This document shows, piece after piece, positions 10,089 through 56,986 of a DNA stretch of 64,000 nt. The first letter of the stretch is position 1, and the number at the start of each line of letters is the position of its first letter. Under the pieces are notes generated by a model. That model made no database searches and had not been told where the DNA came from. It worked only from the letters and a program-made list of their open reading frames with translations. Origin of the DNA: an uncultured bacterium (lineage in GTDB: Bacteria > Auribacterota > Erginobacteria > Erginobacterales > Erginobacteraceae); assembly GCA_963822585.1 (NCBI GenBank), contig CAWGIE010000016.1, forward strand, positions 1-64,000, read 5' to 3'. Both the position numbers and the translations under genes were made by a program.

Positions 10089-11077
10089 ATGTATAGACAA
10101 TTCTACGGCCTGACCGGCCCCCCTTTTAAGCTCACTCCCGATGGCCGGCTGTTCTTCGCGAGTGCCGGTCACAATCGGGCAATTGCCCATCTGACCTACG
10201 GGCTGGCGCAGGAAGAAGGCTTCATCGTCATCACGGGCGAGGTGGGGGCGGGCAAGACCACCCTGATCGAGTATCTGTGGTCGCAGATCAACCAGTCCGG
10301 CTTCGTCGTGGCCCGCATCGTCAATACCATGGTCGCGGGCGAAGACTTCCTGCGCCTTGCCGCAGTGGCGTTCGGCATTCAGGCGAGTGGGGCCGACCGG
10401 GCCACCCTGCTCTCGCTGCTCGAAAACGCCTTCCGCAGCCTCCGCCTGGGGGGAAACGCTGCCTGTTGGTGATCGACGAAGCGCAAGGGCTGTCGGTGAC
10501 AGCGCTGGAAGAACTCCGAATGCTCTCCAACAGCACCCATGACGGGCAGGCGCTGCTGCAGGTTGTCCTGCTGGGCCAGCCGCAGTTTCGCCGGAAGTTC
10601 GTCAGCCCTGGCCTGGATCAACTCCGCCAGCGCGTGCTGGCCTCCTATCATCTCGGCCCGCTGAGCGAGCCGGAAACCAGGGGCTACATCGAATACCGCA
10701 TGAAGGCCGTCGGTTGGTCCGGCAACCCGGGCTGGGAGGAGGACGCTTTTGCCATCATTCACCATTACGCCGGGGGCATCCCGCGCCGGATCAACCGGCT
10801 CTGCTCACGCGCGCTCCTGTACGGCGCGCTCGAGGAAAACTCCAAAATCACCGCGGTCATGGTCAAATCCGCCGCCGAGGAGTTAGACCAGGATCTCGGC
10901 AACGGACCTGTCGCGGCCGCCGACCCGGCGACCGAGAACGATATCGCGCTGAACGGCCATACGCTCGAGCAGCGCGTGTTCGCGCTGGAGCAGACGATCG
11001 CCAGGCGGGAGCAGCTGTTCCGCCGCTTGGATGAGCTGCTCTCCCGGATGCCGGAAGCAAGGCGCGCCGCCCCGTGA
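10089..11077 (+). CDS. ExeA-like AAA ATPase of XrtA/PEP-CTERM-associated EPS loci, one frameshift near 10450
   Basis: MYRQFYGLTGPPFKLTPD, Walker A GEVGAGKTT, Walker B LLVIDEAQ, GGIPRRINRLC; split at a G run. Confidence 0.88.
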
Positions 11078-11970
11078 CCGCCGCTGCCGGATCTGCCCGC
11101 GCCGCGCCGCTGCGCAACGCCATGAGCGTGGACGTGGAAGACTACTACCAGGTCCAGGCGTTCGAGGGCGTCATTCCGCGTCCCGCCTGGGACACGATCC
11201 AGCCCCGCGTAGAAGCCAATGTCGATCGTATCCTGGAGCGGTTCAGCCGCGCCGGCGTCCACGCCACCTTCTTCACTCTCGGCTGGATCGCCGAGCGCCA
11301 TCGCGGCATGATTCGCCGCATCGTTGCCGCCGGGCACGAGTTGGCCAGCCATGGCTACGACCACGTGCGCGCCGACCGCCTCGATGCCCAGGCATTCCAA
11401 ACCGATGTCGGGCGGACGCGGCGCCTGCTCGAGGACATCAGCGGCAGCGCGGTTCGTGGCTACCGCGCCCCCACCTTCTCGATCGGGTCGCGCAATGCCT
11501 GGGCGTTCGCCGCGCTGGAGCGCGAGGGCTACCGCTACAGCTCCAGCGTCTATCCGATCCGCCACGATTTATATGGTGCCCCGAATGCGCCCCGCGTGCC
11601 GCACCGCCCCGGCGCGGGGGAGCTCTGGGAAATGCCGCTGAGCACGATCCGAGTTGCCGGGCACAACCTGCCCTGCGCGGGCGGCGGCTATTTCCGCCTG
11701 CTGCCCTATTCGGTGTACCGGCTTGCGCTGCTGCACCTGAACCGCACGGGGCAGCCTGGCATCTTCTACTTTCATCCCTGGGAAGTGGACCCCGCTCAGC
11801 CCCGCATCGCCGGATGCGCCCCGCTGTCGCGCTTCCGCCATTACGTCAATCTGTCGGAAATGCCCGCCCGGCTCGATCGCCTGCTCGGTGATTTCGCTTG
11901 GGATCGCCTGGATCGGGTGTTTGCGCATCTCCTGGATGGGTCCGCTCCGGCCGCCGGCGCCCCGCACTGA
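11074..11970 (+). CDS. Polysaccharide deacetylase, XrtA-system type
   Basis: NAMSVDVEDYYQV, ATFFTLGW, GHELASHG, GYRAPTFSI, GGGYFRLLPY, FYFHPWE. Confidence 0.93.
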   Translation: MTAAAGSARAAPLRNAMSVDVEDYYQVQAFEGVIPRPAWDTIQPRVEANVDRILERFSRAGVHATFFTLGWIAERHRGMIRRIVAAGHELASHGYDHVRADRLDAQAFQTDVGRTRRLLEDISGSAVRGYRAPTFSIGSRNAWAFAALEREGYRYSSSVYPIRHDLYGAPNAPRVPHRPGAGELWEMPLSTIRVAGHNLPCAGGGYFRLLPYSVYRLALLHLNRTGQPGIFYFHPWEVDPAQPRIAGCAPLSRFRHYVNLSEMPARLDRLLGDFAWDRLDRVFAHLLDGSAPAAGAPH

Positions 11971-11974
11971 TCGA

Positions 11975-13011
11975 ATGGGACTCCTCTGCCGAGCACTCGA
12001 CGCGGCTACGGCCCCGGGCTGGGACGACTTCGTCCGCGCCATGCCCGGCGGCACTTTCTTCCACCTCGCCGCCTGGCGGGAGGTGATCGCGCGCGCCTTC
12101 GGCCACCGCACCTATTACGTACCTGACGACCCGCGACGGCGCCATCACCGGCGTCTTGCCGCTCGTGCATATGAAGACCCGCCTGTTCGGCAACTCGCTG
12201 GTCTCCAACCCGTTCGCCGTCTACGGCGGGCCGCTCGCCGCCGATCCCGAGAGCACCATCGTTCTGCACGAGTATGCCGAGAGGTTGATGTCGCGTCTCG
12301 GCGCCGACGCCGTCGAATTCCGCTTTCGCGATCCCTCCGGGAGCAGCTGGCTGGCCGGGCCGGACCGCTACGCGACCTTCCGCAAATCCATTTCTGCCGA
12401 GGACGCGGCCAACATGCAGGCGATCCCACGCAAGCAGCGCGCCATGGTGCGCAAGGGGATCCAGAATGGCCTTGCCTCCGAGGTGTCGACCGAAGCGGTC
12501 GACCGGTTCCATCGTATTTATGCCGAGAGCGTCCGCAACCTCGGCACGCCGGTGTTCTCGCGCGCCTATTTCCGCTTGCTGCTGGCGACCTTCCGCGGCT
12601 GCTGCGACATTGTCACGGTGCTGGACGGGGAGCGCCCGATCGCCGCCGTGCTGAATTTCTATTTTCGCGACGAGGTGCTGCCGGTACTATGGCGGCGGAA
12701 CGGCGCTGGCACGCAGCCGCGCCGCAAACGATTTCATGTATTGGGAGGTGATGCGTCGCGCCGCGGCGCGCGGCTATCGGCTGTTCGATTTCGGGCGCAG
12801 CAAAATCGGCACCGGGGCCTATGCGTTCAAGCAGAACTGGGGTTTTTCACCGGAGAAACTGGACTACCGCTACAACCTGCGACCCGGCGCGGCGGTTCCG
12901 GACCACAGCCCGCTCAACCCGAAATACAGACTGATGATCGCCGCCTGGAAGCGGCTGCCGCTGCCGCTGGCCTCACTGATCGGCCCCCGCATCGTGCGCG
13001 GTATCGGATGA
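11975..13011 (+). CDS. FemAB-related GNAT-fold protein, XrtA-system type; frameshifts near 12120 and 12685
   Basis: TFFHLAAW, LFGNSLVSNPFAVYGG, IPRKQRAMVRKG, SVRNLGTPVF, FDFGRSK, NPKYRLMIAAWKRLP. Confidence 0.88.
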
Positions 13012-41229: not shown

Positions 41230-42340
41230 GGCCCACCCGTGGCTGTCCCGTGACCCCGATCAGCGCGTCGCACACATGACCCCCCTGCTGCTGGCTCATG
41301 CCCGGGAACAGCGGCAGCGACAGCGTTTCCTTGGCCAGCTGCTCCGCCACCGGGAACGCTCCCTCGGAATAGCCGAGATCGGCGTAGGCCGGCTGAAGAT
41401 GCACCGGAACCGGGTAATGCGCCCCCGTCTGCACGCCTTCGGCCGCGAGGTGGGCGCGCACGGCCGCCCGCTGCGGCACACGCACGGCGTAAACATGGTA
41501 GACATGGTCTGCTCCGGCGCCCGGCGCTGGCCGAACGATCCCGGCATTGTCCAGCCTGCTATGGTAATCCGCTGCCAGCTGGCGGCGTGCGTTCGTCCAG
41601 CCGTCGAGATGTCGAAGCTTGACGTTCAGGACGGCTGCCTGGATTTCGTCCATCCGGTAATTGAAGCCCTTGAGCAGGTGCAGATATCGCTCCTTCTGTC
41701 CCCAATGCCGCAGCAGCCGCACGCGCTCGGCATGGTCGGCGTCGTTGGTGACGACCGCACCGCCCTCGCCGCACCCCCCCAGATTCTTTGCCGGATAGAA
41801 GCTGAAGCAGCCGAGGTCCCCGAACGCGCCGGCGCGCCGCCCGTCACGCACCGCGCCATGGGCCTGCGCCGCGTCCTCGACGACCACGAGCCGATACGCG
41901 CGGGCGATCGCGACAATGGACGACATGTCTGCCAGCCGGCCATGCAGGTGCACAGGCACGATCGCCCTGGTCCGCGCCGTGATCGCCGATTCCAGCAGGC
42001 GGCAGTCCATCGTCCAGGTATCGGCATCGATGTCCACGAGCCTGGGGATCGCCCCGACAGCTTGGATCGCCGCTATGGTCGCGACGAAGGTCATCGGCAC
42101 GGTAATGACTTCGTCCCCGGGGCCGATCCCGGCCGCGAGCAAGGCAAGCTGCAGCGCGGCGGTGCCCGAGCTGACCGCGACGGCATGCGCCACCCCGCAG
42201 TACGCGGAGAAGCCCCTCTCGAACGCCTCGTTGTGAGGACCGAGAACGTAGTTGCCGCTCCGCACGATGCGCTGAACGACGTCCACGAGTTCGTCCTCGA
42301 TCCCCTGATGTTGCAGGGGAAGATTGGTCAGCGGAATCAC
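41210..42340 (-). CDS. DegT/DnrJ sugar aminotransferase (WbpE-like)
   Basis: SSGTAAL, EDAAQAHG, SFYPAKNLG, NYRMDEIQAA. Confidence 0.93.
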   Translation of the reverse strand: MIPLTNLPLQHQGIEDELVDVVQRIVRSGNYVLGPHNEAFERGFSAYCGVAHAVAVSSGTAALQLALLAAGIGPGDEVITVPMTFVATIAAIQAVGAIPRLVDIDADTWTMDCRLLESAITARTRAIVPVHLHGRLADMSSIVAIARAYRLVVVEDAAQAHGAVRDGRRAGAFGDLGCFSFYPAKNLGGCGEGGAVVTNDADHAERVRLLRHWGQKERYLHLLKGFNYRMDEIQAAVLNVKLRHLDGWTNARRQLAADYHSRLDNAGIVRPAPGAGADHVYHVYAVRVPQRAAVRAHLAAEGVQTGAHYPVPVHLQPAYADLGYSEGAFPVAEQLAKETLSLPLFPGMSQQQGGHVCDALIGVTGQPRVGHAVALG

Positions 42341-43363
42341 GACACGAGCCTCAATGGCGCCATTTCGATCGGATGGCCGCGCAGCCGCATCGAGCGGGTC
42401 GCCGCTTCCAGCGTCTGGACCACGCTCAGCCCGAGCCGGCCTCCGGTGAGCGGCGCGGTGCCGTTGGCGATGCAGTCGATGAAATGCGCGGTTTCGAGAA
42501 GCAGCGGCTCTGCCGCTTTCAAATGCGGCGCCCACATATCGCCGCTGCGGTAGCCGACCAGCATCTGATGGATGTCCTGCCGCTCCTCGCTGAGCTGAAC
42601 CCCGCGATCGTAGATCTTGACCTTCTCGGAGGGCTCGAGCTCGTCGTAGACGACCATCTTGCGGCTGCCGCCGATCAGTACGCGGCGCACTTTCACCGGC
42701 GCCAGCCAGTTGACATTGAGATGGGCGACCGCGGGATCGAAATGCAGCGTGATCTGCGCCATGTTCTCCGGATTGCCCTTCAGGTGGCTAATTCCATTGG
42801 CGGATACGCTGACCGGCGACCGTCCCAGCAGCAGATGCAAAATCGAGAGATCGTGCACCGCCAGATCCCAGATCACGTTCACGTCGCGCTGGAAAAGGCC
42901 GAGATTGATGCGCGTCGAGTTGGTAGTACCATAGCTCGCCAAGCTCGTCTGCCTGGGTGAGCCGGTGAATCGCCTGCACGGCCGGAGAGTAGACGAACGT
43001 GTGGTCGACCAGCAGCACCAGATTGCGCCGGCCGGCCTCCTCGATGAGCAGCATCGCCTGGTCGGACGTCTCGGTCATCGGCTTTTCGAGCAGAACGTGA
43101 CGCCCGGAGCGCAAGGCGGCATCGGCGATTTCGTAGTGCGTGCGCACCGGGGTGGCGATTGCAAGGGCGTCAACCCCGGGGATGGAAAGCGCCGCGCGCC
43201 AATCGTTCAGCAGCTGCGCGGTCGGGAAACGCTTCGCTGCGCGCACCAGCGCTGCCGGCGAGGGATCGGCGATCGCCACGATGCGGCACCCCTCGGTATC
43301 GCCGAAGCAGCGCGCCAGGTTCGGGCCCCAGTACCCGTAGCCGATGATTGCTATGCCGATCAT
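42337..43363 (-). CDS. Gfo/Idh/MocA oxidoreductase (WbpB-like); frameshift near 42925
   Basis: GYGYWGPN, EKPM, DHTF, RINLG, WDLAVHD. Confidence 0.9.
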
Positions 43364-44116: not shown

Positions 44117-45406
44117 TCAGCGCGCCGGGCTGCACGGCCGGATGACAATCGCCCGCTCTCGACCAGGCGTCGCGGGCTCGGGTTGCCGGTTGGCGATGAT
44201 CTCGCTGAACAGCTCGAGCTGGCCCCGGCTGGTCTCCCCCCAGCCAAAGCGCTCGGCATAACCGCGCGTGACGGCGCGATCGGGCGGATCGTCCAGCAGC
44301 ATTCGCACGCCCGCCGCAATCGCTTTGGGCGTATTTTCGACCAGCAGTCCCGCGGATCGGCTTTGCACGACTTCGCGATTTCCCGCGATGTTGCTCGCGA
44401 CCACCGGCGTGCCGCAGGCCATCGCCTCGAGCAGCACGTTGGCCCAGCCCTCTCGGCTCGACGCCAGCACCAGCGCATCCGCCGCGGTGTAGAAGCGGGG
44501 CAAGGCGGCATGCGGCTGCGCGCCGAGGAACCGCACGCGATCCGCAACGCCGCAACGCGCCGCGAGGGCGCATAGCCGCTCGCGTTCCCCGCCCTCGCCG
44601 ATCACCAGCAGGTCGACCCCCGCCAGCATGGCCAGTGCTTCGATGATCCGATGATGGCCCTTGCGTTCGATGAGATGCCCGACCGAAAGCAAGGCGGGGC
44701 GGCGAAGGCCAAGGCTTGCTCGCGCCGCTATCCGCTCGGCGGGGCGGAACAACGTCGTGTCGACTCCATTGCGCAATATCCGGATTTGCTCCGGGCGCGC
44801 GCCGAGCTCCAGCAGCCCGGCTTGCAGCGCGGCGCTGACGGTGATCAGCCCGTCGGCGCGCGCCATCGCGCGGCGGATCAGGAGCCGCGGCACGGCATGC
44901 TCGGGGAGTTGCGTGACATCGGAACCGCGCGCCGTGATCACGACAGGAAGCCCGAGCCGCGCCCCGAGCCAGATCGCTGCCACCCCGTCGGGATAGAGAT
45001 AATGCGCGTCGATCGCGTCAAATTCCAATCCGGCGCCGGTCAGCCGCCGCAGCGCTCGCAGGCTGCCCTGGTAAAGCAGGAATGGTGCCGCCTCCATGCC
45101 GACCCGCGGAACCGCCGGGTAGCGCGGGTGATGGATATTCAGCCCGTGCCGCCGCTCCAGCGGAGCGACTCTCGCATAGCCGCTCCATTTGCCGAAGCGG
45201 GCCGACCGAAACGGAAAGAACGGCACGGGGGCCAGCACCGTCGCCCGCGCCGCGCCAGTTCCCACCAGGTGGCGGAGCCGGTTTTCGACGAACACGCCGT
45301 GGTTGGGCTGGGCGTCGTTGGGGAACAGGGTCGTGAATGTCAACAATCTCACCGGCAATCGCACCGGCGCCGCACCGAGCTTCGCCGGTGGAACGGCCAG
45401 GCTCAT
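44117..45406 (-). CDS. Glycosyltransferase family 4 (TuaC-like)
   Basis: TTLFPN, IDAHYLYPDG, TARGSD, REGWANVLLEAMACGTPVV. Confidence 0.92.
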   Translation of the reverse strand: MSLAVPPAKLGAAPVRLPVRLLTFTTLFPNDAQPNHGVFVENRLRHLVGTGAARATVLAPVPFFPFRSARFGKWSGYARVAPLERRHGLNIHHPRYPAVPRVGMEAAPFLLYQGSLRALRRLTGAGLEFDAIDAHYLYPDGVAAIWLGARLGLPVVITARGSDVTQLPEHAVPRLLIRRAMARADGLITVSAALQAGLLELGARPEQIRILRNGVDTTLFRPAERIAARASLGLRRPALLSVGHLIERKGHHRIIEALAMLAGVDLLVIGEGGERERLCALAARCGVADRVRFLGAQPHAALPRFYTAADALVLASSREGWANVLLEAMACGTPVVASNIAGNREVVQSRSAGLLVENTPKAIAAGVRMLLDDPPDRAVTRGYAERFGWGETSRGQLELFSEIIANRQPEPATPGRERAIVIRPCSPAR

Positions 45407-46767
45407 CGCGCGCCTTCCTGAAACAGGATGACCCGCACCGTCGCGATCAGGATGAGCAGGTCGAGAAAAATTCCCCGATGTTTCAGATAATAGAGATCGT
45501 AGGACAGCTTCATCCGGGCATCATCGAGGGAAGCGCCGTACGGAAAGTTGACCTGCGCCCAGCCGGTGATGCCGGGCTTTACCCAGTGGCGGTCGCCGTA
45601 GTGCGGAATGGCGCGGGCGAGCTGCGCCACGAAATGCGGGCGTTCCGGCCGCGGCCCGATCAGGCTCATCTCTCCCCTGAGCACATTGATCAGTTGCGGC
45701 AGTTCATCAATCCGCAGCGATCGGATGACGCGCCCGACGCCGGTCACCCTGGGATCGTTCTTGTCCGCCCAAGCCGGTCCACGCCCGGCCTCGGCGTCCG
45801 GGGTCATGCTGCGAAATTTCAGCAGGGTGAACTGCTTGCCGAACCGGCCGATCCGCTCTTGGCGGTAAAGCACCGGCCCCGGCCCCTCGATGCGAATCAG
45901 CAACGCCACCAGCAGCATCAATGGCAAGAAAAACGGCAGCAGAACCCCGCTCACCAGCAGGTCGAGGCTCCGCCGCAGCCCGGATTGCATCCGCCCGCAG
46001 GAGAACCCCTCGGCGAAAGCCAGCCAGTCGGCGCCGAGGTGATCGATATCCACCCGCCGCAATTGGCGTTCGCGGAACTCCACATCGGTGAAAAACCTGA
46101 CCCCTTCCGCTTTGTAACGCAGCAAGTCCTGGGCCGCGAGCCGCGCCCGGGCAGTGGGAGTGACCACGACAGCCCAGACCCCGAGTTCGCGGATCCGCTC
46201 CGGGCGGGGCAGCCCGTCTTCCTCGGAAACGATGCCGACCAGCCGGTAAAACGGCCCGACCGGCGCGGTGATGGCTTCCCGCGCCCGCAGCGCCGCGGGG
46301 CCGGAGCCGACCACGATCAGGCGGCGAACGAAAAAATCAAACTGCAAGGCGACGCATAGCGTCGTGCGCGTTGCGACTAGGCAGACGATCCAGGCGAGCA
46401 GGATCTCGAGCAGATCGCGCGCGTCGTGGCTCGCCAGCTCCCCCACTTTCAGGCCGAGCGCACTGCTGGCCGCGAGCAGCACCGGAAACGCCAACGCCGC
46501 GGCCGCAGCGGTATTGACCGCGAGCGCCCGCCACGCAAAGCAGGTCTCCGCGCGATACAGTCCGACCGCGATCGCGGCGAGCCCGATGGTGAGCGCGAGC
46601 AGCGCCGCGACGCCGAGTGTCCGCGGATTCTGAATCGGCGCGCTATGGCCGGTTACCGCGACAGTTACTGATAAGAAGACGCTGAAGGCGACGAAGCACA
46701 GCAGCAGCTCCAACAGCCATAGCAGCACCATTTCAGCGGGCATGTAGTGCCCGAAAACTCGCACCAT
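45403..46767 (-). CDS. Priming polyprenyl-phosphate sugar phosphotransferase, XrtA-system type
   Basis: MVRVFGHY start, KFRSM, DPRVT, RIDELPQL, GPRPERP, VKPGITGWAQV, KLSYDLYY. Confidence 0.94.
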   Translation of the reverse strand: MVRVFGHYMPAEMVLLWLLELLLCFVAFSVFLSVTVAVTGHSAPIQNPRTLGVAALLALTIGLAAIAVGLYRAETCFAWRALAVNTAAAAALAFPVLLAASSALGLKVGELASHDARDLLEILLAWIVCLVATRTTLCVALQFDFFVRRLIVVGSGPAALRAREAITAPVGPFYRLVGIVSEEDGLPRPERIRELGVWAVVVTPTARARLAAQDLLRYKAEGVRFFTDVEFRERQLRRVDIDHLGADWLAFAEGFSCGRMQSGLRRSLDLLVSGVLLPFFLPLMLLVALLIRIEGPGPVLYRQERIGRFGKQFTLLKFRSMTPDAEAGRGPAWADKNDPRVTGVGRVIRSLRIDELPQLINVLRGEMSLIGPRPERPHFVAQLARAIPHYGDRHWVKPGITGWAQVNFPYGASLDDARMKLSYDLYYLKHRGIFLDLLILIATVRVILFQEGAR

Positions 46768-47163: not shown

Positions 47164-47238
47164 AGGCGTGTAGCTCAATGGTGGAGCGCTGCCGCGACCT
47201 GGCAGAGGCAGGGGGTTCAATTCCTTCCGCGCCTACCA
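47164..47238 (+). tRNA. tRNA-Val(GAC)-like element with non-canonical features (pseudo-tRNA or specialised tRNA)
   Basis: Acceptor AGGCGTG/CGCGCCT, D-arm GCTC/GAGC, anticodon stem CTGCC/GGCAG with loop GCGACCT, T-arm GGGGG-TTCAATT-CCTTC, discriminator A and encoded CCA. Confidence 0.85.
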
Positions 47239-47276: not shown

Positions 47277-47906
47277 ATGAGAGCCGTCGCGAAGTCCCTC
47301 GCCGCGCTGGCTTGCCTTGTGGCGCCGTTGGCGGGCTGCGGCTCGCCCTGGGCGACCGCGCCAGTCCTGGCGCTGACGGCGGCGTCCCGGCCGGCGAGCG
47401 AATACGTCATCGGCCCGGGCGACACGCTCGGCATCTTCGTCTATCGGGCGCCCGAGCTCAGCGTCACGGCGTTGCCGGTGCGGCCGGACGGGCGGATTTC
47501 GGTGCCGCTGATTCCCGACCTGGTCGCGTCGGGCAAAACCCCGACCCAGCTCGGCACCAAAATCGCAGGCCGCCTCAAGAAATACGTCAAGGATCCGATT
47601 GTCACCGTCATGGTGCAATCGTTCGTCGGTCCCTTCAACCGGCAGATTCGCGTGATCGGCCAGGCGACCGAACCGCTCGCCATTCCTTACCGCGATCACA
47701 TGACGGTGCTCGACGTGATGATCGCGGTCAAAGGTCTCACGCGGTTTGCCGCCGGCAACCGCGCGGTGATCGTCCGCCGCGCGCCGGGCGGGCGCGAGCG
47801 GACCCTGCATGTTCATCTCGCCGACCTTCTGAAAGACGGCGATATTTCGCAGAACGTCGCCATGGAGCCCGGCGACATCCTGATCATTCCGCAGAGCTGG
47901 TTCTAG
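47277..47906 (+). CDS. Polysaccharide export lipoprotein (Wza-like), XrtA-system type
   Basis: Lipobox LAGC, YVIGPGD, VRPDGRISVPL, PGDILIIPQSWF. Confidence 0.93.
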   Translation: MRAVAKSLAALACLVAPLAGCGSPWATAPVLALTAASRPASEYVIGPGDTLGIFVYRAPELSVTALPVRPDGRISVPLIPDLVASGKTPTQLGTKIAGRLKKYVKDPIVTVMVQSFVGPFNRQIRVIGQATEPLAIPYRDHMTVLDVMIAVKGLTRFAAGNRAVIVRRAPGGRERTLHVHLADLLKDGDISQNVAMEPGDILIIPQSWF

Positions 47907-47909
47907 ACC

Positions 47910-49421
47910 ATGAGCGACGTGCTCGATCTCATACGTCAGTACGTCAGGTCCGGGTGGCGCCATCGCTGGATCGGCCTGGCGGCGGTCTGGACGGTCTGCG
48001 TGGTCGGCTGGGCAGGCGTGTACACGATACCCAACAGCTATGAATCGAGCGCTAGGCTCTACATAGACGTCGACGCCGTGCTCACTCCGCTGCTGCGCGG
48101 GATTGCGCTCGACAACACCCCGCTCAGCCAACTCGAGATTCTGCAGCAAACCCTGCTGAGCCGCCCCAATCTGGAAAAGCTGATTTCGCGGACGGCGCTG
48201 CACCTCGGCGCGACGACACCACGCAGCCGGGAGGCGCTGATCGGGCGGCTCGGCAAGGAGATCAAGATCGAACCGCAAAGCCGCAATCTCTTTTCCGTCG
48301 TGTATCGCAGCCACGACCCGCAAGTCGCCCACAGCGTCGTCCATACGATACTCTCTATCTACATGGAGAGGGCCGCCGGCTCCCGCAGATCGGATACCGA
48401 GAACGCCGAGCGGTTCCTGCACCAGCAAATCACATCCTACGAGAAGCGGCTGCGCGCGGCGGAGCAGCGCCGCGCCGAATTCCAGTCGAAATACATCGAG
48501 GTGCTTCCGGGAGCGAATGGCGGCGCTTCGCAGCTCGAGCTCGTGCGCTCGGAAGTGCGCAAGGTGAAGGGAGAGCTTCAGGACGCGACCGCGCGCCGTG
48601 ATATGCTGGAGGCCAACCTCAAGGACACGCCGCCGCTGCTGACCGCGGATGCGGAATTCGCGATGCTCTCCGGCAATGCCACCACGCCGCTGGCCGAAGC
48701 CGAACGTCAGCTGCGGGAACTGCGGCTGCGCTACACCGAGCAGGATCCGGATGTGATAGAGGCCCGCGAGCGTGTCGCGGTACTCAAACGGACCGGCGGC
48801 GGTGCCGCGGTCGGCAATCACAAGCGTTCCCTGGCGAACCCGGTTTACCAGCAGCTCAAGCTGCACCTGATCGATGCGACCGCGACCGTGGCCTCGTTGC
48901 AGCGCCGACTCCGCGATGCCACGGCAAGCCAGGATCGCCTGAATAGGATAGTACGCGCCGAGCCGGGGCTTCAGGCGGAAGCCGCCAACCTCGATCGCGA
49001 TTACAACGTGCTCAAGCGGGATTACGAGGAGCTGCTCGCCCGGCGGGAGGCGATGCGCATAGCCACCGCGGCGGATCGGCACGCCGACAAGGCGAAAATA
49101 TCGGTGGTCGATCCCCCGGAGCTGCCGCGGGTTCCGGTTGCGCCGAAACGGGCCCTGCTGTTCTCCGGCGTTCTGGTTGCTGGATTCGGCGCCGCAATCG
49201 GCCTCGTGTTTCTGTTGATCCAATTCGACGACTCGTTTGAGACGATCCAGAGCCTGCGCAGTCTGGGCCCGCCGGTAATCGGCGGCATTTCGCTGCGCCG
49301 GTTTCCGGATTCGAAGGACCAGACCGCGTCGGTTGTGGCCTTCATGCTTGGGCTGGTCGTGCTGATTGCGGTATTCGGCGGATTGATCGCCGGCCTCCAC
49401 GGATGGCCGAACGCCATATGA
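47910..49421 (+). CDS. Polysaccharide chain-length determinant / co-polymerase
   Basis: Two terminal TM regions around a coiled coil; PNSYESSARLY, YTEQDPDV, VVDPP. Confidence 0.9.
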   Translation: MSDVLDLIRQYVRSGWRHRWIGLAAVWTVCVVGWAGVYTIPNSYESSARLYIDVDAVLTPLLRGIALDNTPLSQLEILQQTLLSRPNLEKLISRTALHLGATTPRSREALIGRLGKEIKIEPQSRNLFSVVYRSHDPQVAHSVVHTILSIYMERAAGSRRSDTENAERFLHQQITSYEKRLRAAEQRRAEFQSKYIEVLPGANGGASQLELVRSEVRKVKGELQDATARRDMLEANLKDTPPLLTADAEFAMLSGNATTPLAEAERQLRELRLRYTEQDPDVIEARERVAVLKRTGGGAAVGNHKRSLANPVYQQLKLHLIDATATVASLQRRLRDATASQDRLNRIVRAEPGLQAEAANLDRDYNVLKRDYEELLARREAMRIATAADRHADKAKISVVDPPELPRVPVAPKRALLFSGVLVAGFGAAIGLVFLLIQFDDSFETIQSLRSLGPPVIGGISLRRFPDSKDQTASVVAFMLGLVVLIAVFGGLIAGLHGWPNAI

Positions 49422-50338
49422 CAGCGCCCTCCCCGCCCCTTCATCTGGTCGAGCGCGTCGCCAGGCGCCTGAGTGGCCCGATGGCGCTGGCTGACAAGCC
49501 AGCACCCCAGGTCGCCGCGCCGGTGGTGCGGCTGCCCGCCACGGCGTTCGCCGGAACGAAGCGGCCCGGCGCTGCGGTCCGTCCGGCGCCCATCGCTCTT
49601 CCGCCGGGCGAGACGATCAGCGCCGCCCGCCTCGAGCAGGGCGGGATGATCGAGCAAATGACCGAAGGCAATCGCATCTGGGAAGAATTTCGCATCGCGC
49701 AGACTCAGCTCACGGTCGATCCGGGCGCCTCCGCTGGCCAGAACGACGTTTGCGCCAATGTCTGCCTGGTAACCAGCGCCTTGCCACGCGAGGGCAAATC
49801 GTTCTGCGCGATCAATCTCGCGGCAAGCCTGGCGCGCCACAGCACCAGCAAGGTGCTGCTGGTCGATGTGACTGCGCAGCCCAACTGCCTCAGCACGAAG
49901 CTGGCGATTCCGAGCGGCCGCTTCGGCTTGCGCGATCTGGCGGCCAGCCCCGGCGCCGACCCGGCCAAGGCTGTCGTTGCCACGCCTATGCCGAATTTGC
50001 TGTTCATGCCGATCGGTGCGCGTCATGAAGACCGCAGCCTGCCGATCGCTTCGGCAATTCAGGAGCTGTCGTGCAGCTTTGGCGATCACTTTCTCATACT
50101 CGACGCCCCGGCATGCTTGTGCAGCAGCACTCCGAGCACGCTGGCCGCGCTGGTCGGCCAGATCGTTTTGATCGTGGAAGCAGAGCGCACCCAACGCAAG
50201 GAAATCGAGGCGGCACTCGACCTGATCGAAGCCTGTTCCAACGTGAAGCTCATCCTGAACAAGATCGAATCCAGCGCGAGCCATACATTCGGAGCTTATC
50301 GAAACGCGCCCTACCACGCCACGGCGCGGAATTCGTGA
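49418..50338 (+). CDS. BY-kinase-like tyrosine autokinase, stand-alone ATPase domain
   Basis: EEFRI, Walker A SALPREGKS, AINLA, LILDAP. Confidence 0.85.
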   Translation: MTAPSPPLHLVERVARRLSGPMALADKPAPQVAAPVVRLPATAFAGTKRPGAAVRPAPIALPPGETISAARLEQGGMIEQMTEGNRIWEEFRIAQTQLTVDPGASAGQNDVCANVCLVTSALPREGKSFCAINLAASLARHSTSKVLLVDVTAQPNCLSTKLAIPSGRFGLRDLAASPGADPAKAVVATPMPNLLFMPIGARHEDRSLPIASAIQELSCSFGDHFLILDAPACLCSSTPSTLAALVGQIVLIVEAERTQRKEIEAALDLIEACSNVKLILNKIESSASHTFGAYRNAPYHATARNS

Positions 50339-52062
50339 CCCCCTTGCCGGGGCGAGCCGCGCCACGCCGGCTATGCGTCCTCGGGCTCGCCTTGCCAGCG
50401 CTGGTTCCGGCCAACTCCGTCCATGCCCAGCCGGTCAACCCGGATCAAACCGCCGCCGGCCTCCCCGCCATCCAGGAACCGCCAGCGCCCGGTCCGCCGG
50501 GACAACCCGTGCCGCTTGCGGAAAAGCCCGCGCCGGAGATCCGGCTCGGAGACATGCGGTCGCTGCTCGGCCAGCTCCCGCCGTCGCAGCCAACCGGGGC
50601 GCCCGCCAGCAACTGGACCATCGTCCCCTCGATCGGGCTGCAGGAGATGGCCACCGACAACGTGTTCAGCACCGCGAGCAGCCGCCGCGCGGACCTCGTC
50701 ACCAGCCTGAGCCCGGGCATTCTGATCAATGGCGACACGCAGCGCCTGCGCGCAACGATAAGCTACGCACCACAGCTGCAACTTTACGCCTTCACCCCCG
50801 GTCAGAACAACATCGCGCAAAATTTCAACGGCGAGGCAACGGTTTCGGTGATTCCCGGCTGGCTCCTGGTCAATGCGCAGGCGTTCGCGACACAGCAGGC
50901 CATTTCCGGCGGCTACGCGCCTGGCGGCACGCCGGTGCTGACCAACCAGAATCGCGCCGATGTCACCAGCTTCACCATCACGCCCTATTTGAGCCACACG
51001 TTCGATGGAATCGGCACGGGGCAGCTCGGCTACGCCTTCAACCATAGCTCCCAATCCGGCGTGACCGCGGTGCAACCCAGTTCGGCACTGCCGTTTTTCA
51101 TGAACAACGACATATCCACGAGCGAGGAGTTCGCGAAGTTTTCCACCGGCGAGAATTTCGGCCGAATAAACAACAAGGTCATCTTGAAGGCCAGCCAAAA
51201 TACCGGGCAGGGAATTGTCGACAACTCGCATGAGAATTTTTACACCGACACGTTCGCCTATGCTCTCAATCGGTCGATAAGCTTGGTGGTCGAGGGAGGG
51301 TACGAGCAGATCGCCTATCCGAACGGCATACCTCCGTTCCGGGTGGATGACCTGGTCTGGGCGGGCGGCTTCAAGCTGCAGCCGAATCCGGACAGCACGA
51401 TCATTGCGCTCTATCGCCATCTGTATGGCGTGAATGCGCCTTATCTCGATGCCACGTACGCGTTGACCGCGCGCACCAAGCTTTATGCTTCCTATTCCGA
51501 TATAATCGGGACTCAGACGCAGATCTTGCAGGATACGCTTGCCGAGACCACGCTCGGCGGACGCGGCACACCGGTTGACTTGCAAACCGGGGCGCCGGTG
51601 CTCGTGGTCAACCAGCTGCTGGGAGTTCAGAACGGGCTGGTCCGGCAAAAGCAGCTGATGTTGCGGACCAGCACGGGCTTCGAGCGCGACACTGTGTCGT
51701 TGAACGCCTTGCATCAATCGCAGACGCTGCTTTCGGTGAGTTCCGGCCTCTCCGGATTTTCGCAAAGCGGTACCTCGGGCGGCATTACCTGGACCCATGA
51801 CCTGAGCACGGCCGCCTCCAGCACGCTCTACTTGCAATACGGCGTCTTGTCCTTCAGCGAGCCGGGCGCCGCGACCGGCTCCCAGCGGATCCTCACCGGC
51901 TCGCTGGCCCTGACCTACAATTTCAGCCAGTCGGTGAGCGGAACCATCCAGTATGTGCTCACGAACAACATTTCTCTCGGCTCCACGGTTCAGCCGACCG
52001 GGCTGCCCGCGCAAGGTTTCCTGGACAACGTCGTGCTGCTGGGAATACTGAAGCGCTTCTGA
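50335..52062 (+). CDS. Outer-membrane beta-barrel protein of PEP-CTERM-associated EPS loci
   Basis: Signal peptide, Pro-rich linker, PSIGLQEMATDNV, C-terminal Phe (ILKRF); located after the kinase. Confidence 0.82.
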   Translation: MTPLPGRAAPRRLCVLGLALPALVPANSVHAQPVNPDQTAAGLPAIQEPPAPGPPGQPVPLAEKPAPEIRLGDMRSLLGQLPPSQPTGAPASNWTIVPSIGLQEMATDNVFSTASSRRADLVTSLSPGILINGDTQRLRATISYAPQLQLYAFTPGQNNIAQNFNGEATVSVIPGWLLVNAQAFATQQAISGGYAPGGTPVLTNQNRADVTSFTITPYLSHTFDGIGTGQLGYAFNHSSQSGVTAVQPSSALPFFMNNDISTSEEFAKFSTGENFGRINNKVILKASQNTGQGIVDNSHENFYTDTFAYALNRSISLVVEGGYEQIAYPNGIPPFRVDDLVWAGGFKLQPNPDSTIIALYRHLYGVNAPYLDATYALTARTKLYASYSDIIGTQTQILQDTLAETTLGGRGTPVDLQTGAPVLVVNQLLGVQNGLVRQKQLMLRTSTGFERDTVSLNALHQSQTLLSVSSGLSGFSQSGTSGGITWTHDLSTAASSTLYLQYGVLSFSEPGAATGSQRILTGSLALTYNFSQSVSGTIQYVLTNNISLGSTVQPTGLPAQGFLDNVVLLGILKRF

Positions 52063-52335: not shown

Positions 52336-52529
52336 GGGGATGGGACAACGTGTTCCTGATCCGTCTCCTCACCCAATTCGACCATGTAGCGCCCGCGGTT
52401 GCTGAGACATCTGGTTGCAGGCTACGCGGCCAGGGCCGCGGGTTGAAGCCCTGATCGCTCAGCCCTATCGTGCGGTGCGGGCATAGTGTAGAGTGCAGTC
52501 TCTCTGCGGCCCGAGTTGCCCCGAGTCCG

Positions 52530-53708
52530 ATGTCCCAAAGTGAATTCTTGTTTTCGGTGATCCGCGCCACCCTCGATTGTAGGGTAAACGTAGTTCCGGC
52601 ACTGCCGATCCCTCCTTGCGTCGACTGGGCCATGCTCGTCGAGCGTGCCCTCGCGCACGGGGTGGCGGCTTTTTTGAGCCGATACATCCTTGCGCTACCG
52701 CCTGAAGTCGTCTCGAGCGAGTTCAGCGCCGCGGCGGAGCATTTTCTGCGGCGCAGACGCGACGACGCTGCGGCCGCTATTGGCGACTTGCGGCAGGTGC
52801 TAGAAAACTTGGAGGCTGCCGGAATAGCAGCAGTCCCGTTTAAAGGTCCGCTCCTTGCAAATGAGGCCTATGGCCACTGGGCGGCGCGCGAGTTCAGGGA
52901 CCTCGACATCCTCATACCTGAGACTCAAGCGGAACGTGCAATCCATGTCCTTGAAGGGCTGGGATATTGCTCACAACAACATTTATCGACCCAGCAGCGC
53001 CGAGCTTACTACCATTACAATGGCCAGGATTTGCTCGTTGGCCCAGGAAAATACCCCTTAGAACCCCATTGGAAGCTGGCCCCGAGCACATTAAGTATTC
53101 GCCTCGATCCAAGCGAACTGCTGCAACGGACACGCATTGTCTGTCTGGATCATTATAGGTTTCGAGTTTTGTCGCCAGAGGATACGTTGCTGGTCTTGGG
53201 ATTGCACGGCTCGAAAGAGCAGTGGGGTAGGCTCGTCTGGATCGCGGATGTGGCAGGATTCGTGCGCAATCACCCAGACTTGGATTGGAACGCGTTGTTG
53301 GGCACTGCCGAGAGAGCCGGAATTAAGCGTATGGTTCTGCTTGCGCTAGAATTGGCCTGCACGCTCGGCGTTCAGCCGCCTGACGAAGCAATGGCTGCCA
53401 TACGCTCTGATGTGATTTGTCGTCAGCTAGCGCGCCAATTACGCGAGCAATTCGCTAATTTGACGGTTGAACAATCGTCAGTTTTCCATCTTTGTCGTTT
53501 CCGATGGCTTATGCGGGAACGCTTGTCTGATCGGCTGCGCTATGCCGCGGCTACCTTGACGACCCCGCGGGTACAACACCTGCGGCTATTCGACAGCCCG
53601 CCCGTAATGGATTGGGTTCTGCCGATTGTGAAGGTCTCGCATGATTACCTGGCCAAGCCGATCTGGTTGACTGGACGTAAGGTTTTGCGTAACTGCCGGA
53701 GCAAATAG
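52530..53708 (+). CDS. Nucleotidyltransferase family protein (NTP_transf_5-like)
   Basis: VDWAMLVERALAHGV, PFKGPLLA...Y...REFRDLDILI, EPHW, RLVWIADV; start uncertain (52470 or 52530). Confidence 0.85.
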   Translation: MSQSEFLFSVIRATLDCRVNVVPALPIPPCVDWAMLVERALAHGVAAFLSRYILALPPEVVSSEFSAAAEHFLRRRRDDAAAAIGDLRQVLENLEAAGIAAVPFKGPLLANEAYGHWAAREFRDLDILIPETQAERAIHVLEGLGYCSQQHLSTQQRRAYYHYNGQDLLVGPGKYPLEPHWKLAPSTLSIRLDPSELLQRTRIVCLDHYRFRVLSPEDTLLVLGLHGSKEQWGRLVWIADVAGFVRNHPDLDWNALLGTAERAGIKRMVLLALELACTLGVQPPDEAMAAIRSDVICRQLARQLREQFANLTVEQSSVFHLCRFRWLMRERLSDRLRYAAATLTTPRVQHLRLFDSPPVMDWVLPIVKVSHDYLAKPIWLTGRKVLRNCRSK

Positions 53709-53711
53709 CTC

Positions 53712-54902
53712 ATGCCACAAGAACGCACAGCTATGCCGCGACCGGTTGCCGGCGTGCAGTGTTTTCCGTTCGATTCCGGAGCAGTGCTTTTTTCGGAGCC
53801 TGTTCAGGAGTTGCACTTGGTGAATTCCACTGCGGCGTTTATCTGGCGCTGCTTGCAAAATGGCATGAACCAAACGGAGCTCGTTGCCGCCGTATGCACT
53901 GAACTCGGCCTTAATGAACATGAGGCAGAACAATTTGTGCACTCAGCAATCGACGACTGGATTCTGCGCAGACTGGTCGGAGTTGCGCCGATGCCGTCCG
54001 CCCCTACGCAGAGGATTGCCGCGGATGGGATGCTCAACAAAGTCCACGTTGATGCGGGACGGTTTGCAACGGAAAACGTGTACGCGGTTGCCGATTCGGT
54101 GATACTCGTTCGCTTCACTTGTCCAGCGCAGGCTCGGATCGTGTCGTCCAACCTTTCTCATCTCAAATCTCCCGACTTGGTGCCTACTATGTGCATTGAC
54201 GTGATCTCGAATGACAGTGGGATACAAATTTTGCGAAATGGTGCGGTTTGGGCGCATTGCCGCCGCGCAGATCAGCTCGTGCCAAAAATCGAAGGGCTGA
54301 TGGGCTCGATCGCAGCCGAGGCGACGGGCGTATTCCTTCAAATTCATGCCGGCGTGGTTGGTGACGCGAAAGGCTGTGTTTTGCTCCCTGGTGCTAGCGG
54401 AAGTGGGAAGTCGACACTGACGGCTGCTTTGGTTTCTAGGGGACTCTTTTATTTTTCCGACGAGCTGGCACTGCTAGAGGACGGAACTTTCCGCGTCGTG
54501 GCATGTCCTCTGGCCCTTTGTGTTAAACGAAGTGGAACTGGAATTGTAGCGGAATTTTTCCCTGAAATTCGCCGAGCGCCAATACACCAACGCGAAGATG
54601 GAGCGGCCGTTTCTTATCTTATACCTGGGCTGAGGCAACTGCCACTCAGAATGCAGGCTCAAGACGTACGATTAATCATATTCCCCAGCTATACCGGCGA
54701 ACGTCCAGCTTCGATCAGCCGGCTTTCGGCAGGAGCCGCACTCTCGCGGTTGCTTGCTAATTGTCTTGCGGTCTCCTGCCCGCTCACTGTGCCGAGAGTT
54801 CAAGGGCTTATACATTGGTTTGAGCAAATACCGTCGCACCAGCTTTTCTATGCAACTGCTTCGGAAGCGGCAGCAGAGGTATTTGAAGTTCTTCGAGCGT
54901 GA
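53712..54902 (+). CDS. PqqD/RRE domain fused to an HPr-kinase-related P-loop kinase
   Basis: N-terminal LHLVNSTAAFIWRCL...LV (PqqD-like); C-terminal IHAGVV, GASGSGKSTL, FSDELA. Confidence 0.83.
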   Translation: MPQERTAMPRPVAGVQCFPFDSGAVLFSEPVQELHLVNSTAAFIWRCLQNGMNQTELVAAVCTELGLNEHEAEQFVHSAIDDWILRRLVGVAPMPSAPTQRIAADGMLNKVHVDAGRFATENVYAVADSVILVRFTCPAQARIVSSNLSHLKSPDLVPTMCIDVISNDSGIQILRNGAVWAHCRRADQLVPKIEGLMGSIAAEATGVFLQIHAGVVGDAKGCVLLPGASGSGKSTLTAALVSRGLFYFSDELALLEDGTFRVVACPLALCVKRSGTGIVAEFFPEIRRAPIHQREDGAAVSYLIPGLRQLPLRMQAQDVRLIIFPSYTGERPASISRLSAGAALSRLLANCLAVSCPLTVPRVQGLIHWFEQIPSHQLFYATASEAAAEVFEVLRA

Positions 54903-55086: not shown

Positions 55087-55925
55087 ATGTGGACCCCTGA
55101 AAACCGCCCGCTCTACAACCGTGACAAGCTGCGTTATCCGAGCGATTTGACGGATGCGGAATGGCAGCATATCGAGCCGCTGATACCGCCCGCCAAGCGC
55201 GGCGGTGGCAAGCGAACCGTTGACATACGTGAGGTGGTCAACGGTGTGATGTACGTCCTGAGCACGGGATGTCAGTGGCGCTACGTTCCGAAAGACCTAC
55301 CCCCGCGCAGCACGGTGCATGACTACTTCTCCCGCTGGGGCTACGACGGCACATTGGAGAAAATCCATTACGCGCTCTATGTCAAATGCCGCGAGCAGGA
55401 CGAGTCCGAGACCAGTCCCACTGCCTGTATCGTCGATAGCCAGAGCGTGAAAAGCGCGGAAAAAGGGGGGCCTGCATCGATCCCCATGGGTTCGATGCAG
55501 GCAAGCTGATCAAAGGCAAGAAGCGCCACATTCTCGTCGATACGCTCGGTCTGTTGCTGCATGCGCTGGTGACGCCCGCCGATGTTCAGGACCGCGACGG
55601 TGGCCTGATGCTCTTGGCCACATTGTTCGGACAGTTCCCGTTTCTCAAGAAGCTGTTTGCCGACACCGCCTACGCGGGCCCGGTGTTCCATGACGGCCTG
55701 GCCAACATCATGCCGAATCTGGTCACCGAAATCGTCCGTCGTTCCGATCGGGCAAAAGGCTTCGTCGTCCTGCCCAAACGTTGGATAGTCGAGCGCACCA
55801 TCGGTTGGTTTGGTCGCTGCCGCCGGCTGGCAAAGGACTGGGAAAATCTCAACCACAATGCGCTCGCATTCGTCCGCCTCGCCTCCATACGCTTGATGCT
55901 CAGAAAGCTCTGTATTCCCTCATAA
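55087..55925 (+). CDS. IS5-family transposase, copy 1 (two ORFs, frameshift at AAAAGGGGGG)
   Basis: RYPSDLTDAEW, TGCQWR, DSQSVK, KRWIVERTIGW. Confidence 0.9.
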
Positions 55926-55979
55926 AGTCCCCGGACGGAATTCTGAGTTCCTGCGTGGGACCGATCCGCGCGAGGCCGT

Positions 55980-56818
55980 ATGTGGACCCCTGAAAACCGC
56001 CCGCTCTACAACCGTGACAAGCTGCGTTATCCGAGCGATTTGACGGATGCGGAATGGCAGCATATCGAGCCGCTGATACCGCCCGCCAAGCGCGGCGGTG
56101 GCAAGCGAACCGTTGACATACGTGAGGTGGTCAACGGTGTGATGTACGTCCTGAGCACGGGATGTCAGTGGCGCTACGTTCCGAAAGACCTACCCCCGCG
56201 CAGCACGGTGCATGACTACTTCTCCCGCTGGGGCTACGACGGCACATTGGAGAAAATCCATTACGCGCTCTATGTCAAATGCCGCGAGCAGGACGAGTCC
56301 GAGACCAGTCCCACTGCCTGTATCGTCGATAGCCAGAGCGTGAAAAGCGCGGAAAAAGGGGGGCCTGCATCGATCCCCATGGGTTCGATGCAGGCAAGCT
56401 GATCAAAGGCAAGAAGCGCCACATTCTCGTCGATACGCTCGGTCTGTTGCTGCATGCGCTGGTGACGCCCGCCGATGTTCAGGACCGCGACGGTGGCCTG
56501 ATGCTCTTGGCCACATTGTTCGGACAGTTCCCGTTTCTCAAGAAGCTGTTTGCCGACACCGCCTACGCGGGCCCGGTGTTCCATGACGGCCTGGCCAACA
56601 TCATGCCGAATCTGGTCACCGAAATCGTCCGTCGTTCCGATCGGGCAAAAGGCTTCGTCGTCCTGCCCAAACGTTGGATAGTCGAGCGCACCATCGGTTG
56701 GTTTGGTCGCTGCCGCCGGCTGGCAAAGGACTGGGAAAATCTCAACCACAATGCGCTCGCATTCGTCCGCCTCGCCTCCATACGCTTGATGCTCAGAAAG
56801 CTCTGTATTCCCTCATAA
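55980..56818 (+). CDS. IS5-family transposase, copy 2
   Basis: Translations identical to copy 1. Confidence 0.88.
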
Positions 56819-56986
56819 AGTCCCCGGACGGACTCTCAGGCCGTGCGGGATGCAACCCCCGGGCAACCCGGGCAACCCCGCGCCAAGGCTGAACTCTCGG
56901 GATGAAAGAGTTCCCTTGCTTATAGTGCCCAGCTTTGTCATACTTGGGATCTGTGTGGGCACCGGCAGGATAATATTGGAGGTAAT

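Follow-up and report, generated by a model that had tools for sequence, protein, structure and literature searches.

An extra tRNA-Val family in XrtA/PEP-CTERM exopolysaccharide loci with conserved valine identity elements and a variable anticodon loop

Most known cases of tRNAs dedicated to a non-ribosomal use come from the synthesis of the staphylococcal cell wall. Exosortase A systems are involved in floc and biofilm formation. In the tufB operon of E. coli, tRNA genes are co-transcribed with protein genes. Staphylococcal non-proteogenic tRNA-Gly isoacceptors are described as the donors for FmhB, FemA and FemB (PMC7826273; PMC3239215). In the BD-12 pathway, Orf11 is reported to convert streptothrisamine to glycylthricin with Gly-tRNA, acylating an amino-sugar amine (PMC12945691). 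The tRNA-like structure of turnip yellow mosaic virus is described as charged by ValRS via anticodon-like A35/C36 plus the discriminator (PMC9976931), and tRNAOther of Bacillus cereus is reported to affect the cell wall and antibiotic resistance, and not translation (PMC3399842).

In our literature searches, no publication connected PEP-CTERM loci with a tRNA, and the founding PEP-CTERM paper (PMC1569441) mentions neither a tRNA nor FemAB. As far as these searches reach, the tRNA-Val family of XrtA loci described here was previously undescribed. Its members are predicted to be extra tRNA-Val paralogues, conserved in the XrtA/PEP-CTERM loci of Acetobacteraceae-like soil alphaproteobacteria, and the tRNA of the 64,000-nt stretch of DNA analyzed here (the window) is one of them.

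The tRNA gene of the window and its locus

ARAGORN detected a sole tRNA in the window, tRNA-Val(gac) (Table 1), with the letters AGGCGUG/UA/GCUC/AAUGGUG/GAGC/G/CUGCC/GCGACCU/GGCAG/AGGCA/GGGGG/UUCAAUU/CCUUC/CGCGCCU/A/CCA. A first-pass annotation of this DNA had described it as a full cloverleaf with altered decoding features, and direct reading bore this out. The acceptor (7/7, with U6.G67), D (4/4), anticodon (5/5) and T (5/5) stems are paired, both G-U pairs claimed in the T stem (G50.U64 and G51.U63) were read, and G21, A15/A48, A73 and the encoded CCA are present. The loop, G32 C33 G34 A35 C36 C37 U38, has neither U33 nor a purine at position 37, the two bases that, in a seven-base loop, were taken as the elongator pattern; the window tRNA carries C33 and C37 in their place. 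Among the 46 ARAGORN tRNAs of the assembly, 45 have U33 and 45 have purine 37; the window tRNA is the sole exception to both, and the other 45/45 carry both bases.

The tRNA call also held against Rfam RF00005 (49.4 bits; gathering score 29; window E 1.4e-7), and R1, a covariance model built from 18 family sequences, matched the window copy with 91.3 bits. Single-sequence folding was unremarkable: the minimum free energy structure lacked the cloverleaf shape, z was -0.09, and shuffled sequences folded at least equally well in 93 of 200 cases. The case for the window tRNA therefore rests on the covariance models and on the homologues.

Table 1. Coordinates of the tRNA gene and of the XrtA-associated genes in the window
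Feature	Coordinates	Strand	Evidence
XrtA-locus tRNA-Val paralogue (72-nt body + A73 + encoded CCA), loop GCGACCU	47164..47238	+	ARAGORN, Rfam, R1
XrtA/PEP-CTERM exopolysaccharide export lipoprotein, first gene after the tRNA	47277..47906	+	TIGR03027 234 bits, cut-off 180; lipobox L-A-G-C
XrtA system chain-length determinant	47910..49421	+	TIGR03007 424.6 bits
XrtA-associated tyrosine autokinase	49403..50338	+	TIGR03018 129 bits, below cut-off 230.65
PEP-CTERM system-associated outer-membrane protein	50071..52062	+	TIGR03016 114.2 bits, cut-off 90.85
Divergent priming glycosylphosphotransferase	45403..46767	-	TIGR03025 347.1 bits (over cut-off); TIGR03013 374.3 bits (cut-off 393.35)
XrtA/PEP-CTERM ATPase, one frameshift at G6 run near 10450	10089..11044	+	tblastn, intact L184 orthologue, two frames
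XrtA system polysaccharide deacetylase	11074..11970	+	TIGR03006 399.6 bits
FemAB-family XrtA-associated protein, full length, three frames	11975..13008	+	tblastn; shifts near 12122 and 12684

The tRNA lies between divergent operons, as annotated, inside a 509-nt gap between the priming glycosylphosphotransferase and export lipoprotein genes, and the export gene starts 39 nt past the CCA on the same strand. The XrtA markers TIGR03027, 03007, 03016, 03006, 03108 and 03097 scored over their cut-offs in the window. The exosortase XrtA itself (TIGR03109) had no match on the window's contig; elsewhere in the assembly, a single TIGR03109 match, which at 134 bits falls under the cut-off, lies on a contig whose composition differs. 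A promoter and terminator scan of the window gave nothing on the plus strand.

The FemAB-like protein had been placed at 11975-13011. A full-length homologue does occupy this position, but in three reading frames separated by two frameshifts: tblastn aligned residues 1-49, 50-243 and 244-351 in frames 2, 3 and 1, respectively, with 61-77% identity. The pieces of the split gene matched TIGR03019 with 35.5 and 189.6 bits, under the cut-off of 260.35. The gene is 34 kb from the tRNA, after a rearrangement, and the XrtA deacetylase gene is directly upstream of it, as in the isolate locus L184 (Limobrevibacterium gyesilva). The frameshifts of the window FemAB and ATPase genes may be assembly indels or true pseudogenes.

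The window contig has 64% G+C vs. 53-59% for the assembly contigs of typical composition, and its tetranucleotide distance is far above theirs. BLAST with the tRNA revealed no homologue in 40 taxonomic relatives of the assembly (best E 3.9e-4 over 26 bases), a lack that is accounted for by the contig being a compositional outlier. From its composition and this absence, the contig is probably mis-binned and derived from an Acetobacteraceae-like organism. Since the contig is an outlier, the ordinary tRNA-Val genes of the assembly are invalid as a same-genome control, and five other tRNA-bearing genomes were used in their place.

Conservation of the family and of its valine identity

More than 140 homologues, with a 72-nt body ∼90% identical, were gathered from Acetobacteraceae-like genomes and from metagenomes. 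The export protein, used as query, brought in 80 related loci; in 17 of these, ARAGORN placed a tRNA-Val homologue ahead of the export gene, and all 17 have the form AGGCGYGUAGCUCA...CCGCGCCUA, with anticodons UAC, CAC or AAC. Two decayed copies (L052, 66.5 bits; L054, 49.5 bits) and faint remnants at the same place in L034 and L037 were additionally found with R1. Comparison of the same position in related loci, which the first-pass annotation had proposed, thus yielded cloverleafs with covarying stems and divergent anticodon loops, in which A35, C36 and A73 are invariant. Among the 80 export-gene loci there was no family match outside the L031-L055/L095 group, and the XrtA loci of other classes had no tRNA at the export-gene position.

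The family to which Limobrevibacterium gyesilva (G041) belongs was sampled with 151 genomes, 45 of which had an R1 match of at least 82.5 bits; five of these matches are ordinary G1-C72 tRNA-Val, and their removal left 42 copies in 40 genomes. R1 matches were found in 9 of 151 genomes of the order sample and in 3 of 151 of the class sample. A metagenome scan whose seeds were taken from the T arm and 3′ acceptor strand alone returned at least 120 stretches, and among the first 100 of these, 94 rows (91 unique) were family members by R1. The metagenome counts below refer to these first 100 of at least 120 stretches.

The export gene follows on the same strand in 55/56 genome copies, at a distance of 42-472 nt, and in 56 of the 67 metagenome copies with at least 600 nt downstream. 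Family conservation starts at base 1 and stops at A73, and the sequences upstream of the tRNA in 54 members were not alignable, with no shared promoter seen. In 17 other alphaproteobacterial FemAB neighborhoods (up to 20 kb), 12 were without any tRNA and none had this type, so that no family-type tRNA lay within 10 kb of FemAB in those 17 genomes. A derivation of the A1-U72 pair and the G.U-containing T stem from the housekeeping tRNA-Val(UAC) of other alphaproteobacteria (L191, L192) was considered and rejected: both of these tRNAs are in or beside XrtA loci.

When the alignment was mapped on the export-protein tree (53 rows), 39 of its 73 columns were free of any change. Stem cells are paired in 98.8% of cases, pairs 30-40 and 31-39 show compensatory changes, and the tertiary pair 15-48 covaries (G:C 23, A:U 13 and U:A 6 of 54), with A15/A48 in the window copy. 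Such pairing and covariation indicate that the RNA is selected as a folded tRNA. G18-G19 and TTC (T54-T55-C56) are invariant in the 53 rows. CCA is encoded in 25/54 genome copies, far above chance, and in 45/91 metagenome copies.

The anticodon loop behaves differently from one position to the next. The minimum number of changes on the same tree (53 rows) is 14 at position 32, 11 at 33, 18 at 34, 0 at 35, 0 at 36, 5 at 37 and 8 at 38. By our own arithmetic, the two zeros at 35/36, given the slowest rate of the other five positions, have a probability of ∼e^-10. Among 54 unique genome copies, 12 lack U33, 7 lack purine 37 and 18 lack one or both, and 36 keep a decoding-compatible loop; position 34 is U in 32, C in 14, A in 6 and G in 2. 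In the metagenome copies, A35-C36 is kept in 90/90 seven-base loops, of which 27 are without U33 and 32 without U33 or R37; in an additional copy the loop has eight bases.

Members with odd loops (without U33, purine 37 or both) are as intact as the others. They carry 0.56 vs. 0.75 differences at 53 conserved columns and 0.11 vs. 0.14 mispairs, and CCA is encoded in 8/18 vs. 17/36. The C37 loop UUUACCC is common to three species whose export proteins are 88-89% identical. A decaying tRNA copy, which had been offered as an alternative, is therefore excluded for the family.

The main ValRS determinants are described as A35, C36 and A73, with position 34 not among them, and the minor ones as G20, G45 and an acceptor helix that is regular, with no G.U in pair 3 or pair 4 (PMC9976931). 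All three main determinants, said from the start to be retained in the window tRNA, are indeed present there and are invariant in the 53 family rows. Among the minor determinants, G20 has given way to C or U in every one of the 53 rows, G45 is found in 46/53, and G3-C70 and C4-G69 are invariant Watson-Crick pairs. The five tRNA-bearing control genomes also have ordinary tRNA-Val genes with G1-C72, U33 and A37: GAC, CAC and UAC genes in four of them, and GAC and CAC genes in the fifth. A dedicated ValRS was found in none, and each of the five has one ValRS.

These data show that selection on the 72-nt body, as an L-shaped tRNA, is strong and purifying. As judged from its substitutions, the family is selected for tRNA shape and ValRS identity and not for decoding, and the tRNA would be chargeable by ValRS yet freed from decoding, a view that the retained determinants support.

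Linkage to the FemAB-family gene

The tRNA usually leads an operon of the order export - chain-length determinant - kinase - outer-membrane protein - ATPase - deacetylase - FemAB. The isolate locus L184 starts with PrsK (-), priming transferase (-), tRNA (+), export and chain-length determinant genes, and continues with kinase, outer-membrane protein, ATPase, deacetylase, FemAB and glycosyltransferase genes. In many other genomes the FemAB gene lies 6-9 kb downstream of the tRNA. The proposed FemAB linkage proved real: a TIGR03019 match is present in 40/40 tRNA-bearing genomes, usually in the same operon, although the match is split in two of these genomes and is a fragment only in one. In the family sample, 27 of 111 genomes without the tRNA have a TIGR03019 match, and the tRNA was found in 0/84 genomes without such a match. 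In the class sample, the tRNA is present in 3/20 FemAB-positive vs. 0/131 FemAB-negative genomes. Since these genes are physically linked, their joint presence does not by itself point to FemAB in particular.

Conversely, no intact tRNA was found in 27 of 67 genomes with a TIGR03019 match, or in 21 of 58 with a typical full-length gene. L052 and L054 have their decayed tRNA copies beside intact FemAB genes, and in a clade with strongly diverged FemAB (∼142-158 bits) the tRNA is absent or a remnant only. The FemAB genomes without an intact tRNA and the decayed copies indicate that the tRNA is dispensable for the transferase.

The intact FemAB orthologue of L184 matches TIGR03019 with 458.9 bits, and its structure model (pLDDT 88.2, pTM 0.87) has the double-GNAT Fem fold. 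In Foldseek, the top 11 matches to this model are all aminoacyl-tRNA transferases (E 1e-16 to 5e-14, TM 0.64-0.70, 15-22% identity), comprising Sbb17/Sba18 with streptothrisamine, FemX of S. aureus and Weissella, and FemA; the next matches (1e-10) are to other tandem GNATs and to MprF domains. The family profile matched S. aureus FemX with E 8.7e-10 and with the F-K-K.WG motif aligned, from which we infer that the Lys of this motif is equivalent to the catalytic Lys305 of Weissella FemX.

The first-pass annotation had proposed a dedicated aminoacyl donor for the FemAB-like protein. The comparative prediction, the FemAB linkage and the transferase fold speak for this idea; the frameshifted FemAB gene of the window and the many FemAB genomes without an intact tRNA speak against it, as do the 36/54 members whose loop could decode, the 29/54 with no encoded CCA, the loss of G20 and the XrtA loci of other classes, in which the export-gene position has no tRNA. 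We consider that a ValRS-charged, non-decoding donor tRNA for the FemAB-family transferase has about an even chance of being correct.

The tRNA might instead be a cis-acting, tRNA-shaped leader, a cleavage site for RNase P/RNase Z that sets the 5′ end or the stability of the mRNA and carries no amino acid. Its position upstream of the export gene in 55/56 copies, the lack of a terminator-like site between the tRNA and that gene in the window, the acceptor and T arms, which processing enzymes read and which are the most invariant parts, and a CCA that is not encoded in 29/54 copies are consistent with such a leader. However, processing enzymes ignore the anticodon, yet A35-C36 shows 0 changes vs. 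5-18 at the neighboring loop positions and is kept in all 90 seven-base metagenome loops, and the D arm, the anticodon stem and the 15-48 pair are also kept. An encoded CCA (25/54) is, moreover, far commoner than chance, and 11/67 metagenome copies are without an export gene within 700 nt. In the distant genome G319 the tRNA is between a glycosyltransferase gene and wecB, inside the exosortase-A supercluster, and in G330, a likewise distant 2.7-Mb assembly, it is 7.4 kb beyond FemAB, at the locus edge. Because the tRNA sits elsewhere in these two genomes, a trans-acting RNA is favored, and its placement argues for an RNA tied to the system rather than the leader of one operon. The pure form of an RNA-processing signal, the other alternative of the first-pass annotation, is thus argued against by the invariant A35, C36 and A73 and by the covarying stems, and we regard a leader as unlikely. 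Similarly improbable is a redundant decoding tRNA-Val, that is, an ordinary extra isoacceptor under relaxed selection that is slowly being lost. It would fit the 36/54 decoding-compatible loops, the decayed copies and remnants (L052, L054, L034 and L037) and the R1 scores, in which ordinary tRNA-Val ranks highest among ordinary tRNAs; in G330 the family-type tRNA may indeed decode, because no other tRNA-Val(UAC) was seen there. Neutral decay, however, hits all positions, whereas here 39/73 columns are fixed while as many as 18 changes fall on a single loop position. Copies that lack U33 or R37 are as intact at their remaining positions as the other copies, and one such state survived speciation. 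The wobble base, with 18 changes, has visited A, C, G and U, and A34 is an uncommon base in bacterial tRNA-Val. This tRNA type was found only with a FemAB/XrtA locus (0/84 and 0/131 without).

The non-decoding loop with conserved ValRS determinants would also suit a regulatory pseudo-tRNA that, charged or uncharged, binds a protein such as ValRS or a regulator of exopolysaccharide synthesis and tunes expression, and the locus does have its own regulators, PrsK adjoining in L184. No candidate partner or binding site was found, though, and the FemAB enzyme of the same operon is a more direct use for a chargeable tRNA, which makes regulation of this kind very unlikely. Sequence errors of an indel-prone metagenome assembly, as the source of the unusual loop in the window copy, are suggested by at least three frameshifts in conserved genes of the contig, one of them at a G6 run. 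The contig errors elsewhere are indels, though, and this loop has the normal seven bases between intact flanking stems; with equally odd loops in about one-third of the independent homologues, we find such an artefact extremely improbable. It would touch the window copy only, and not the family result.

A candidate private valine donor compared with known systems

If the tRNA is a donor for the FemAB-family transferase, it would undergo maturation, copies that lack a genomic CCA would acquire one, and the housekeeping ValRS would load the RNA with valine. At least in those lineages, about one-third, whose loops are crippled, it would take no part in translation. Its valine would go to the transferase instead. 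Before that step, the neighboring deacetylase would expose an amine on one of the amino sugars, either in the polymer itself or in its lipid-linked precursor, and this amine would then be acylated by the transferase, much as Orf11/Sba18 acylates streptothrisamine from Gly-tRNA. From the Orf11 precedent and the deacetylase adjoining FemAB we infer this order of de-N-acetylation and N-valylation. A private tRNA would keep translation from competing for the valine supply, like the staphylococcal non-proteogenic tRNA-Gly for FmhB/FemA/FemB. In a speculative extension, which is quite unlikely to hold, the tRNA, deacetylase, FemAB transferase and exosortase would be the Gram-negative counterpart of staphylococcal tRNA-Gly, FemXAB and sortase, valine from the private tRNA would be joined by an amide bond to a de-N-acetylated sugar of the exopolysaccharide, and its free alpha-amine would be the nucleophile that accepts PEP-CTERM proteins from exosortase A; the long-unknown acceptor of exosortase would then be an aminoacylated polysaccharide.

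A donor role, if true, would be a second, independent case of a dedicated non-ribosomal tRNA, in Gram-negative bacteria, with valine and for an exopolysaccharide, and would give a first concrete, testable function to the FemAB-family protein that accompanies exosortase A systems. The evolutionary signature is unusually clear, with identity bases frozen while decoding bases drift, and the family offers natural variants for asking how much of the anticodon loop ValRS needs.

EF-Tu binding was estimated with the pair values of PMC3239215 (Table 2; reference -10.1 kcal/mol). The family T stem (G49-C65, G50.U64, G51.U63) computes to -8.3 kcal/mol, a value to be read with the non-additivity reported there for G49-C65/G50.U64 stems. 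The ordinary tRNA-Val(UAC) T stem of the same genomes (GC, GU, CG) computes to -8.6 kcal/mol, only 0.3 stronger, and the class means given for tRNA-Val T stems are -9.4 to -9.7 kcal/mol (PMC3239215). The calculation is not discriminating, because the ordinary tRNA-Val(UAC) of the same genomes is almost as weak, and it does not demonstrate a weakened EF-Tu interface for the XrtA tRNA.

The XrtA tRNA resembles the staphylococcal tRNA-Gly as described: it is an extra isoacceptor beside a full decoding set, it keeps its synthetase identity, it is lineage-restricted, and it goes with Fem-type transferases. In contrast to the staphylococcal case, the amino acid would be valine, the hosts are Gram-negative alphaproteobacteria, and the locus is one for exopolysaccharide rather than peptidoglycan; the tRNA is embedded in the transferase operon, and it is the anticodon loop itself that loses U33 or R37. 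The TIGR03019 orthologue shares the double-GNAT Fem fold with FemX and Orf11 (Sba18, Sbb17), but only 15-22% sequence identity, and its candidate substrate and amino acid are predicted from context. We know of no dedicated tRNA reported for Orf11.

Like the XrtA tRNA, the turnip yellow mosaic virus structure, as described, is a non-decoding RNA with A35/C36 ValRS determinants; it differs in being the pseudoknotted 3′ end of a viral genome with no transferase link, whereas the XrtA tRNA is a free cloverleaf gene. The tRNAOther of Bacillus cereus is likewise a predicted tRNA that, by the published account, is not in translation and affects the cell envelope, but its gene borders a genomic island, it appears to have a regulatory role, and neither its sequence nor its host is related to those of the XrtA tRNA. 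As in the tufB operon, protein-coding genes of the same strand come immediately after the XrtA tRNA; in contrast, tRNAs of the tufB type are ordinary decoding tRNAs with canonical loops.

tRNA and FemAB variants in the collected loci

The export lipoprotein gene was absent within 700 nt downstream of the tRNA in 11 of the 67 metagenome copies, among the matches listed (L219, L226, L227, L232, L235, L262, L279, L280, L291, L297 and L298). A short conserved stretch lies directly 3′ of the tRNA in several of the 11 copies and is followed by unrelated ORFs; judged by eye, these look similar to H-NS and to a PAP2 phosphatase. Insertion of an element at the tRNA 3′ end may account for this arrangement. 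Among the matches listed, a single family member, in metagenome locus L309, carried an eight-base anticodon loop, UGAUACAU.

In a clade of sampled genomes (G118, G119, G155, G446 and G447; loci L033–L035), the FemAB-family gene scored only 142–158 bits over its full length. No intact tRNA was found in this clade, and a remnant was present in L034. The enzyme and the tRNA may have co-diverged here. An ordinary-type tRNA-Val(CAC), with a D-stem mismatch at G13, was located ∼7 kb from the FemAB gene in another alphaproteobacterium (G379; L202:2802-2877); this proximity may be due to chance.

Composition and reading frames of the contig

Contig C16, which carries the window, has a G+C content of 64%, compared with 53–59% in the contigs of typical composition from the same assembly, and its tetranucleotide distance was far above that of those contigs. 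As a compositional outlier, contig C16 is probably mis-binned. Contigs C13, C14, C20 and C22 were further outliers in the same comparison.

Several genes of the window are frameshifted or split (see table). Among its conserved genes, a G6 run was present at one frameshift site only, with the remaining frameshifts lying outside such a run. The frameshifts of the window may represent either errors or pseudogenes.

Features of the window
Feature	Position	Strand	Remarks
IS66 transposase	38-1840	-
ATPase gene			frameshift at 10450
FemAB gene			two frameshifts, at 12122 and 12684
1963-aa ORF	13216-19107	-	three DUF4082 domains, Ig-like domains, serralysin-type C-terminus
GFO/IDH/MocA oxidoreductase	42337-43363		split; N- and C-terminal ORFs overlapping
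NTP_transf_5 nucleotidyltransferase (uncharacterised), then PqqD and HprK-related kinase A protein	52470-54902	+
IS5-family element, two tandem copies	55087-56872	+	DUF4096/DDE ORFs split

Mobile elements and gene order

The locus is flanked by the IS66 transposase and the IS5-family pair, whose tandem copies are 893 bp each and 97% identical. The 1963-aa ORF contains three near-identical blocks, each with four 297-bp repeats, and its product is a candidate secreted substrate of the locus. Compared with its relatives, the locus is rearranged: 34 kb separate ATPase-deacetylase-FemAB from the export operon in the window, and the outer-membrane protein gene is followed by the nucleotidyltransferase and the PqqD plus HprK-related kinase A protein, at the place that ATPase-deacetylase-FemAB occupy in the relatives.
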